Source: a virus (lineage: Duplodnaviria > Caudoviricetes). From it: a stretch of DNA of 64,000 bases. Location of the stretch: IMG/VR virus record IMGVR_UViG_3300033069_001603, positions 1,003 through 65,002 of that record. One strand, written 5' to 3'. Each line of letters opens with the position of its first letter. Within the stretch, counting starts at the first letter, position 1. The translations under genes were made by a program, and so were the position numbers. Positions 16,155 through 16,485 of this stretch are shown one piece after another. The notes below the pieces were generated by a model. That model ran no database searches, had not been told where the DNA came from, and was given only the letters and a program-made list of their open reading frames with translations.

Positions 16155-16485
16155 TGGTGCCCGAAGACGGACTTGAACCGTCACAGCCGTTAGGCCGAGG
16201 GATTTTAAGCATGTTGTTAATTAGTTTCCTAATTACACGGACTATCTCTTTATCCTTAGCATCACCTATTAGGATAGTGGGCGCTCTTGCTGGTTATTAA
16301 GAGGGTTATACCTCCCCAGTAGTCTCTGCACCTTCATCGAATATATTCGATGCTTGGCTCACGATTGTCATAGTATTTCTACTTTAGACTCTCCTGAATT
16401 CACCCACAGTTTACTCTTATATTACTATAAGAGGGGGACTCAATGTCTGTCGATCCCTTGTGTCTACCAATTTCACCATTCGGGC
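16155..16485 (-). tRNA. tRNA-Leu(TAA) interrupted by a group I intron
   Basis: Exons GCCCGAATGGTGAAATTGGTAGACACAAGGGAT and (C)TTAAAATCCCTCGG...GGGCACCA resemble enterobacterial leuZ. Confidence 0.9.
16210..16452 (-). ncRNA. Group I intron in tRNA-Leu (243 nt, no ORF)
   Basis: P1 GGGAU/GUCCC with U.G, P3 GTGGGTG/CGCCCAC, R GTGCAGAGACTA, S AAGAGATAGTCC, P9 GAAA tetraloop, terminal G. Confidence 0.9.

Follow-up and report, generated by a model that had tools for sequence, protein, structure and literature searches.

Introduction

The anticodon arm of a viral tRNA-Leu(UAA) gene is interrupted by an intron whose splice sites, read by the usual rule, would leave an anticodon loop one nucleotide too long. 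The question raised by this locus is where the intron is cut, and whether the phage makes an ordinary tRNA or one with an expanded loop. Few features of group I introns are as constant as the U-G wobble at the 5' splice site, and models of substrate docking are built around it. A preliminary description of the locus relied on it. It placed the intron at tRNA position 32/33, with the 5' cut after U32, and offered two explanations of the 8-nt loop that results: a non-canonical choice of splice site (a 5' site after A, or an intron ending in C), or an expanded-loop tRNA able to promote frameshifting.

The DNA comes from the IMG/VR record IMGVR_UViG_3300033069_001603 (65,002 bases), a virus record that is approximately 42% complete, with a G+C content of 33.5%. 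Positions 1,003 to 65,002 of the record, 64,000 nt, were analyzed and are called the window below. Its genes include those for RIIA and an ATP-dependent DNA ligase, and it has a cluster of tRNA genes on the minus strand.

The interrupted gene and its surroundings

With introns allowed, ARAGORN reports an 87-nt tRNA-Leu(taa) once 244 nt are removed, and the intron limits that it sets are the same as those obtained by comparison of relatives (Table 1). After intron removal, the gene reads as a class II tRNA-Leu with a cloverleaf, a long variable arm, the anticodon UAA and a 7-nt anticodon loop. The acceptor, D, anticodon, variable and T helices all covary in an RNAalifold analysis of 17 relatives. 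UUA is the commonest leucine codon of the phage (159 of 380, or 42%, in 13 long ORFs of the window), and for this reason a defective UUA decoder would be costly to it.

The tRNA cluster lies just downstream of the leucine gene, with members at 15221-15299, 15428-15516 and 15824-15891, all on the minus strand. Here, ARAGORN calls only a Ser(GCU), while Rfam adds 15824-15891 (51 bits, resembling phage tRNA-Pro genes) and 15221-15299 (33 bits). Elsewhere in the window, approximately 58 small ORFs of 83-118 aa stand back to back on a single strand at 46328-63626 (+). At least one paralog within the array is found for 43 of 59 (blastp E<1e-3), with up to 25 partners each, and by this similarity a single family of small proteins makes up a very large tandem array here. 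ORFs of approximately 400 aa at 2594-3796 (-) and 37007-38218 (-) match the PHROG "transposase" family phrog_506 at about 1e-108; these two copies in the phage fragment look like TnpB/IS605-like genes.

Table 1. Features of the interrupted tRNA-Leu(UAA) gene, in window coordinates.
Feature	Position	Strand	Evidence
Interrupted tRNA-Leu(UAA) gene, whole, CCA end encoded	16155..16485	-	ARAGORN -i: tRNA-Leu(taa) at c[16155,16485]; cloverleaf helices covary in 17 relatives
5' exon: acceptor strand, D arm, anticodon-stem 5' strand, ending in A31 (16454)	16454..16485	-	Similarity to intron-less contigs stops at 16454
P1 extension hairpin, UCGA / UUGA around CAGACA, containing U16453	16441..16453	-	MFE fold; a hairpin of variable sequence here in relatives
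Group I intron, 244 nt, first base U16453, last base G16210	16210..16453	-	Rfam 85.4 bits; ARAGORN limits; 54 relatives
Internal guide UUGAG-UCCC	16435..16443	-	P1 and P10 pairing counts
P2, 8 bp, GUAA tetraloop	16414..16433	-	MFE fold; compensatory changes at each P2 pair (RNAalifold)
P7 5' strand GACUA (guanosine-binding helix)	16320..16324	-	Invariant in 17 relatives; complementary to UAGUC 16244-16240
P7.1-type two-part hairpin between P7 and P3' (CUGG-GGAGG...CCUCU-UAAUAA-CCAG), 30 nt	16290..16319	-	Conserved, covarying
P7 3' strand UAGUC, preceded by J8/7 AAAGAGA	16240..16244	-	Invariant GAGATAGTC
P9.0 (GUG 16238-16236 / CAU 16213-16211) around P9 hairpin (16218-16235, GAAA loop), presenting G16210	16211..16238	-	Covariation
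3' exon: C32-UUAAAA, anticodon-stem 3' strand, long variable arm, T arm, acceptor strand, CCA	16155..16209	-	First base C in 53/54 relatives, U in 1/54; helices covary

The junctions

On the minus strand, the 5' junction reads ...A-G-G-G-A(16454) U(16453) C(16452)GACAGACAUUGA G(16439)UCCCCC, with CGACAGACAUUGA between U(16453) and G(16439). The 3' junction reads ...GUG(16238-16236)...CAU(16213-16211) G(16210), followed by C(16209)UUAAAAUCCCU. The letters reported in the preliminary description were all found as given, with a U after A31 and an intron-final G before CUUAAAA. Its arithmetic is also correct: cuts after U16453 and G16210 give UCUUAAAA, an 8-nt loop on paper.

The extra base, for which a check of the reads had been advised, is not an assembly artefact. 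Three Logan assemblies, X1 (800 nt) and X7 (789 nt), both of one study, and X5, in two overlapping pieces, of a second, show 0 differences and 0 indels over the gene. Since contigs of two other studies are letter-identical to the gene, the extra U is no assembly error. A look for RNA runs carrying the gene found none, and the DNA contigs contained no joint between the exons. The phage is present at riverine sites.

Relatives of the gene and the base after A31

Relatives were collected by four pattern scans, two through viral contigs and one each through genome and metagenome contigs. The patterns demanded the stem GGA/TCC and the family core motifs, which places other stems or sites outside the sample, and in three of the four scans the bases before UUAAAA were left free. 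This gave 54 distinct and diverged intron-bearing family genes, including that of the window. Two of them lie on betaproteobacterial MAG contigs and the remainder on phage or metagenome contigs, and many phage lineages are represented.

The 5' exon ends in GGA in 54 of 54 genes, a count partly dictated by the search patterns. The base that follows, by comparison, is A in 23 genes, G in 18 and U in 13, with no case of C. At the other end, the intron closes with G in all 54, and the 3' exon opens with C in 53 and with U in one. The guide G facing this position is kept in 53 relatives. On a maximum-likelihood tree of the family built without column +1, the base at +1 has changed at least 17 times, and the nearest neighbours of the window carry A (L328) or U (L323, L279). 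Between invariant neighbours, a base that flips so freely belongs to the intron, as its first base, and not to the mature tRNA.

Single members depart from the pattern elsewhere. In L281, an A replaces the conserved guide G. In L291, tRNA position 32 is U and not C; P10 then has a G-U pair here, and the loop becomes UUUAAAA.

Intron-less genes served as a control. A scan for phage tRNA-Leu(UAA) with the same stem, in which zero or one extra base before CUUAAAA was permitted, returned 135 genes with no extra base and 0 with one; all read GGGA-CTTAAAA-TCCC, with a 7-nt loop. In the same metagenomes, similarity to intron-less tRNA-Leu contigs of other organisms halts exactly at 16454 (A31), and these contigs go on as CTTAAAAT.

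Several candidates were rejected during collection. The first viral pattern, GGGA...GTCCC, returned 102 loci, of which nine were family members and the rest mostly chance matches. ARAGORN intron calls in L272 and L204 proved to be tandem tRNAs, and L293 and L159 were dropped as false 5' halves. When the whole gene was compared with 50,697 phage records by distant blastn, no cultured carrier came to light; partial core matches only, over 20-29% of the query, came from uncultured crAss-like phages and a 735-kb metagenomic phage. In a megablast search with 12 kb around the gene, the sole match was the neighbouring tRNA-Pro-like gene.

Architecture of the intron

The intron matches the Rfam group I model RF00028 over model positions 1-253, the full model, at 85.4 bits (gathering score 50, E 2.4e-20). 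Structure was compared with RNAalifold in 17 diverse family members (alignment A1, in which the row of L075 is off by one column). The consensus has 71 pairs, 52 of them with compensatory changes, and contains the tRNA cloverleaf, P2, P3, P4/P5, P6, the P7-P3' hairpin and P8. The intron helices P2, P3, P4, P5, P6 and P8 covary in the 17 relatives. Such compensatory changes are found in the intron and in the tRNA arms alike, which indicates that both are under selection.

The guanosine pocket has its usual parts: P7 is invariant, the terminal G is universal in the family, and P9.0 covaries, its three pairs having 6, 8 and 4 compensatory cells in the 17 relatives. When the splice-site helices P1, P10 and P9.0 are counted together, 82% of cells pair, against 73% in shuffled controls, and none of 500 shuffles scored as high. 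The GA/AA internal loop of J4/5 is invariant throughout the family. In the group I introns that have been studied, it is this loop that receives the wobble.

Between P7 and P3', the family carries a hairpin of the P7.1 type. Its motif CUUAAUAAC is nearly invariant, and several of the nine pairs counted show compensatory changes. IC3 introns are not known to have a P7.1-type element between P7 and P3'. By its sequence and predicted fold, the phage intron is not IC3-like, a distinction that is drawn from the P7.1-type element. The preliminary description had recognized a group I intron at an unusual site of tRNA-Leu(UAA), a P7.1-type insertion unlike IC3 introns, and P9.0 with the terminal G as the 3' site. 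These points held: the first is borne out by the Rfam score and the comparison of junctions, the second by conservation and covariation of the hairpin, and the third by the invariant last base and the covarying P9.0.

Splice-site helices and the position of the cut

In P1, the guide bases UCCC (16438-16435) face the exon bases GGGA (16457-16454). P10 adjoins P1 and joins the guide to the first bases of the 3' exon: G16439, A16440, G16441, U16442 and U16443 face C32, U33, U34, A35 and A36, five pairs in the window. P1 covaries with the anticodon stem, as GGGA/UCCC, CGGA/UCCG and AGGA/UCCU. At stem position 28, the G-C pair becomes C-G in three members, and G changes to A together with C to U in L306. 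The pair labelled 29-57 in the pair count is GC in 13, CG in 3 and GU in 1 of the 17 relatives. The A31-U pair and the G-C32 pair are each present in 16 of 17, the exception being the misaligned L075 row, and the A-U33 pair of P10 is present in 14 of 17. The covariation of P1 with the anticodon stem fixes the register, with A31 opposite U.

The guide is thereby a gapless complement of the ligated exons, 5'-AG-UCCC-3' against 5'-GGGA-CU-3', and in the window the complementarity extends over nine contiguous pairs (GGGA-CUUAA). If U is counted into the exon (GGGAU-CU), it breaks. The earlier observation that the guide pairs without a bulge with either 7-nt product is correct, since GGGA-CUUAA is complementary and GGGAU-UUAA fits with wobble pairs. 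In the MFE fold, U16453 pairs with A16440 and G16439 is left as a one-base bulge, so that the U-G pair is not the preferred pairing even on paper. At the site indicated by the 54 relatives, the pair before the cut is A31-U and not a U-G wobble. A wobble can be drawn one base downstream in the window copy only because +1 happens to be U there.

Taken together, comparison of the relatives makes it likely that the intron spans 16453..16210 at tRNA position 31/32, is cut after the A31-U pair and gives the product AGGGA-CUUAAAA-UCCCU, with an ordinary 7-nt loop. The tRNA-Leu of the window is probably an ordinary one. Site 32/33 with a cut after U32 is not supported: the U would be the +1 base of the intron, at a position that varies between A, G and U among the 54 genes. 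There are points on the other side. A 5' site without a U-G wobble contradicts the group I rule and counts against site 31/32, and the textbook U-G pair one base downstream, present in the window copy and 12 other members, might attract the cut, which counts against it as well. The argument for 31/32 is one of tRNA regularity and conservation, not of chemistry.

Alternative readings

If the U16453-G16439 wobble marks the 5' site and G16210 ends the intron, the mature tRNA would have the 8-nt loop UCUUAAAA, as the main product or a sizeable by-product, and may promote +1 frameshifting or four-base decoding. The two cuts would be told apart by their junctions, GGGACUUAAAA for 31/32 and GGGAUCUUAAAA for the 8-nt loop. 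The U-G pair can indeed be drawn, and U at +1 recurs in 13 of the 54 members. In studied group I introns, the wobble is the main determinant of the 5' site, and moving the wobble moves the cut. However, +1 flips between A, G and U among close relatives, and because A or G cannot form the wobble, the family as a whole must cut elsewhere. The members with U show no compensating shift of the 3' site, as all keep G before CUUAAAA, and their tRNA arms keep pairing through compensatory changes. The guide matches GGGA-CU and not GGGAU-CU, the MFE fold gives U to A, and the codon concerned is the commonest leucine codon of the phage. An expanded loop would require an extra base to be stable in the mature tRNA, whereas the base varies in 54 otherwise well-conserved tRNAs and is present in 0 of 135 intron-less homologues. 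An 8-nt product is for these reasons improbable. Equally improbable is the weaker form, in which some transcripts of the U members (the window and 12 others) are cut one base late to give a tRNA-Leu with the loop UCUUAAAA. If it were true, the phage would make a splice-site-dependent tRNA for +1 frameshifting or four-base decoding at its commonest leucine codon. In the preliminary description, then, the part that stands is the non-canonical choice of splice site, with a 5' site after A as the relatives indicate, and the frameshifting tRNA does not.

The other route to a legal 7-nt loop is a cut after U16453 with the 3' site after C16209, which would leave the loop UUUAAAA and an intron ending in C. 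The guide fits GGGAU-UUAA too, with wobble pairs. Against this, every relative from the unconstrained scans has G-C before UUAAAA (G-U in one), and the G-C is conserved in 53 of 54; tRNA position 32 would be occupied by A, G or U according to the member, which is not tRNA-like; and the guanosine pocket in P7 is canonical and invariant, with P9.0 presenting G. Of the readings considered, this one is the most far-fetched. It is also unlikely, although less so, that the gene is a relic in which splicing has been lost, or depends on a host factor, and no tRNA is made. The lack of a U-G pair at the site would suit a relic, but 52 of 71 helix positions keep pairing by compensatory change across diverged members, in the ribozyme and the tRNA alike, the identical sequence is found in independent samples, and the family is spread across many phage lineages.

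A possible mechanism and its meaning

For a cut at 31/32, the following mechanism can be proposed. P1 would consist of the anticodon-stem 5' strand GGGA and the guide UCCC, with A31 in its A-U pair as the last base before the cut and U16453 as the first base of the intron. By comparison, the 3' site is canonical: it is set by P9.0, the terminal G16210 and P10, and P7 is intact. The bases A-G of the guide, next to UCCC on its 5' side, would pair with U33 and C32 and hold GGGA-CU as one continuous helix for ligation. The 5' site is then probably marked by a break of the helix directly behind the A-U pair instead of by a U-G wobble. At this break, the conserved guide G would be unpaired or mismatched with +1, which is A, G or U and never C, and it would have to stay free for C32 in the second step. 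The register probably comes from a short P1 of four to five bp that abuts P2, the fixed distance to P2 being a likely further mark. The U at +1 in the window copy would be one neutral state of a fast-changing position, and its most likely partner is A16440. That +1 has changed at least 17 times and yet is never C is consistent with selection against Watson-Crick pairing of the guide G; as the sequences are related, this is a hint and not a test. Against a 5' site without the wobble counts work on Tetrahymena, in which replacement of the wobble with Watson-Crick pairs is reported to lower the activity of the first step strongly.

For the window itself, the result is mostly corrective: its tRNA is probably ordinary. 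The wider meaning lies in the family. In at least 54 diverged natural introns, every other hallmark is kept, and the predicted cut site has an A-U pair and an unpaired or mismatched guide G. If they are self-splicing, the family would represent a second natural way of marking the 5' site. Those 13 members in which +1 is U, among them the copy in the window, offer themselves as test cases for what sets the cutting register. For annotation, application of the U-G rule to this family leads to a false 8-nt loop.

Comparison with known introns and tRNAs

Anticodon loops of 8 nt are known from frameshift suppressors, such as the suf tRNAs of Salmonella, and from the mitochondrial tRNA-Thr of yeast. 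The phage gene matches them only in the paper product of the textbook splice rule, whereas the gene itself is indicated to yield a 7-nt loop.

Closer relatives are found among phage introns. A second group I intron lies near the end of the window, at 63647-63893 (+) (feature 63647-64000, Rfam 52.8 bits), in a tRNA(CAU) gene starting at 63679. It is cut after U36 at a canonical UCAU/GUGA U-G site, and the contig ends before its 3' exon. This intron is, like the leucine intron, phage-borne, located in a tRNA gene and provided with an insert between P7 and P3'. A further tRNA(CAU) intron, in L334, is likewise phage-borne in a tRNA gene and shares the motifs AGACUA...CUUAAUAAC...GAGAUAGUC. Both CAU introns are cut after U36 with a U-G wobble, UCAU/GUGA (or CAU/GUG), unlike the leucine intron with its A-U pair. 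These sisters indicate that the core type works with a textbook 5' site too. All three core motifs, the P7.1-type CUUAAUAAC among them, recur in introns of phage protein genes (L335-L347), a likeness at the level of motifs. Introns with AGACUA...CUUAAUAAC...GAGAUAGUC occur in psbA-like genes (L338, L341, L344), ribonucleotide-reductase-like genes (L335, L342) and a conserved ORF (L337, L340, L347).

Other interrupted tRNA genes were seen on these contigs. In L346 (IMGVR_UViG_3300011005_000062, approximately 10068-10168 (-)), a tRNA-Leu(CAA) carries an intron of the same core type, and the entire anticodon loop and the 3' part of the stem are in the 3' exon; the intron seems to lie inside the 5' strand of the anticodon stem, at approximately 27/28, again after A. 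L085 (IMGVR_UViG_3300032214_000715), a giant phage of 239 kb with a family member, has a second tRNA split by another group I intron at 7320-7596 (-). Its anticodon arm reads GCGGA-CUUU...UUAAUCCGU, and it is probably Lys(UUU).

The classical intron of tRNA-Leu(UAA) lies at 34/35 after U (class Leu.3Ug) and is of the IC3 type, as described in the text of Williams 2020. According to the same text, the U/G setting is found in 98.5% of raw calls in a survey of approximately 81,000 genomes, and the only sizeable exception is Leu.3Cg of Proteobacteria (Williams 2020). The text of that paper, as distinct from its class table and figures, mentions no class that is cut after A, and a literature search for a 31/32 intron in a phage tRNA-Leu found no description. 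As far as the text of Williams 2020 describes it, Leu.3Cg has in common with the phage family that it is a natural and sizeable set of group I introns in tRNA-Leu genes whose predicted 5' site has a Watson-Crick pair, whereas it lies at 34/35 with a C-G pair and is IC3, and the phage family lies at 31/32 with an A-U pair. The phage intron and classical Leu.3Ug share the host gene tRNA-Leu(UAA), a compact group I ribozyme ending in G, and a guide that pairs with the anticodon arm. The classical intron, however, is inserted at 34/35 (CUU/a...g/AAAA), after the U of a U-G pair, whereas the phage intron would be inserted at 31/32, after the A of an A-U pair. An insertion between U34 and A35 does not fit the phage gene, in which U33 and U34 are in the 3' exon, beginning CUUAAAA. 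As judged by comparative sequence analysis, the phage family thus differs from the classical intron in its site, in its 5' pair and in its P7.1-type element.
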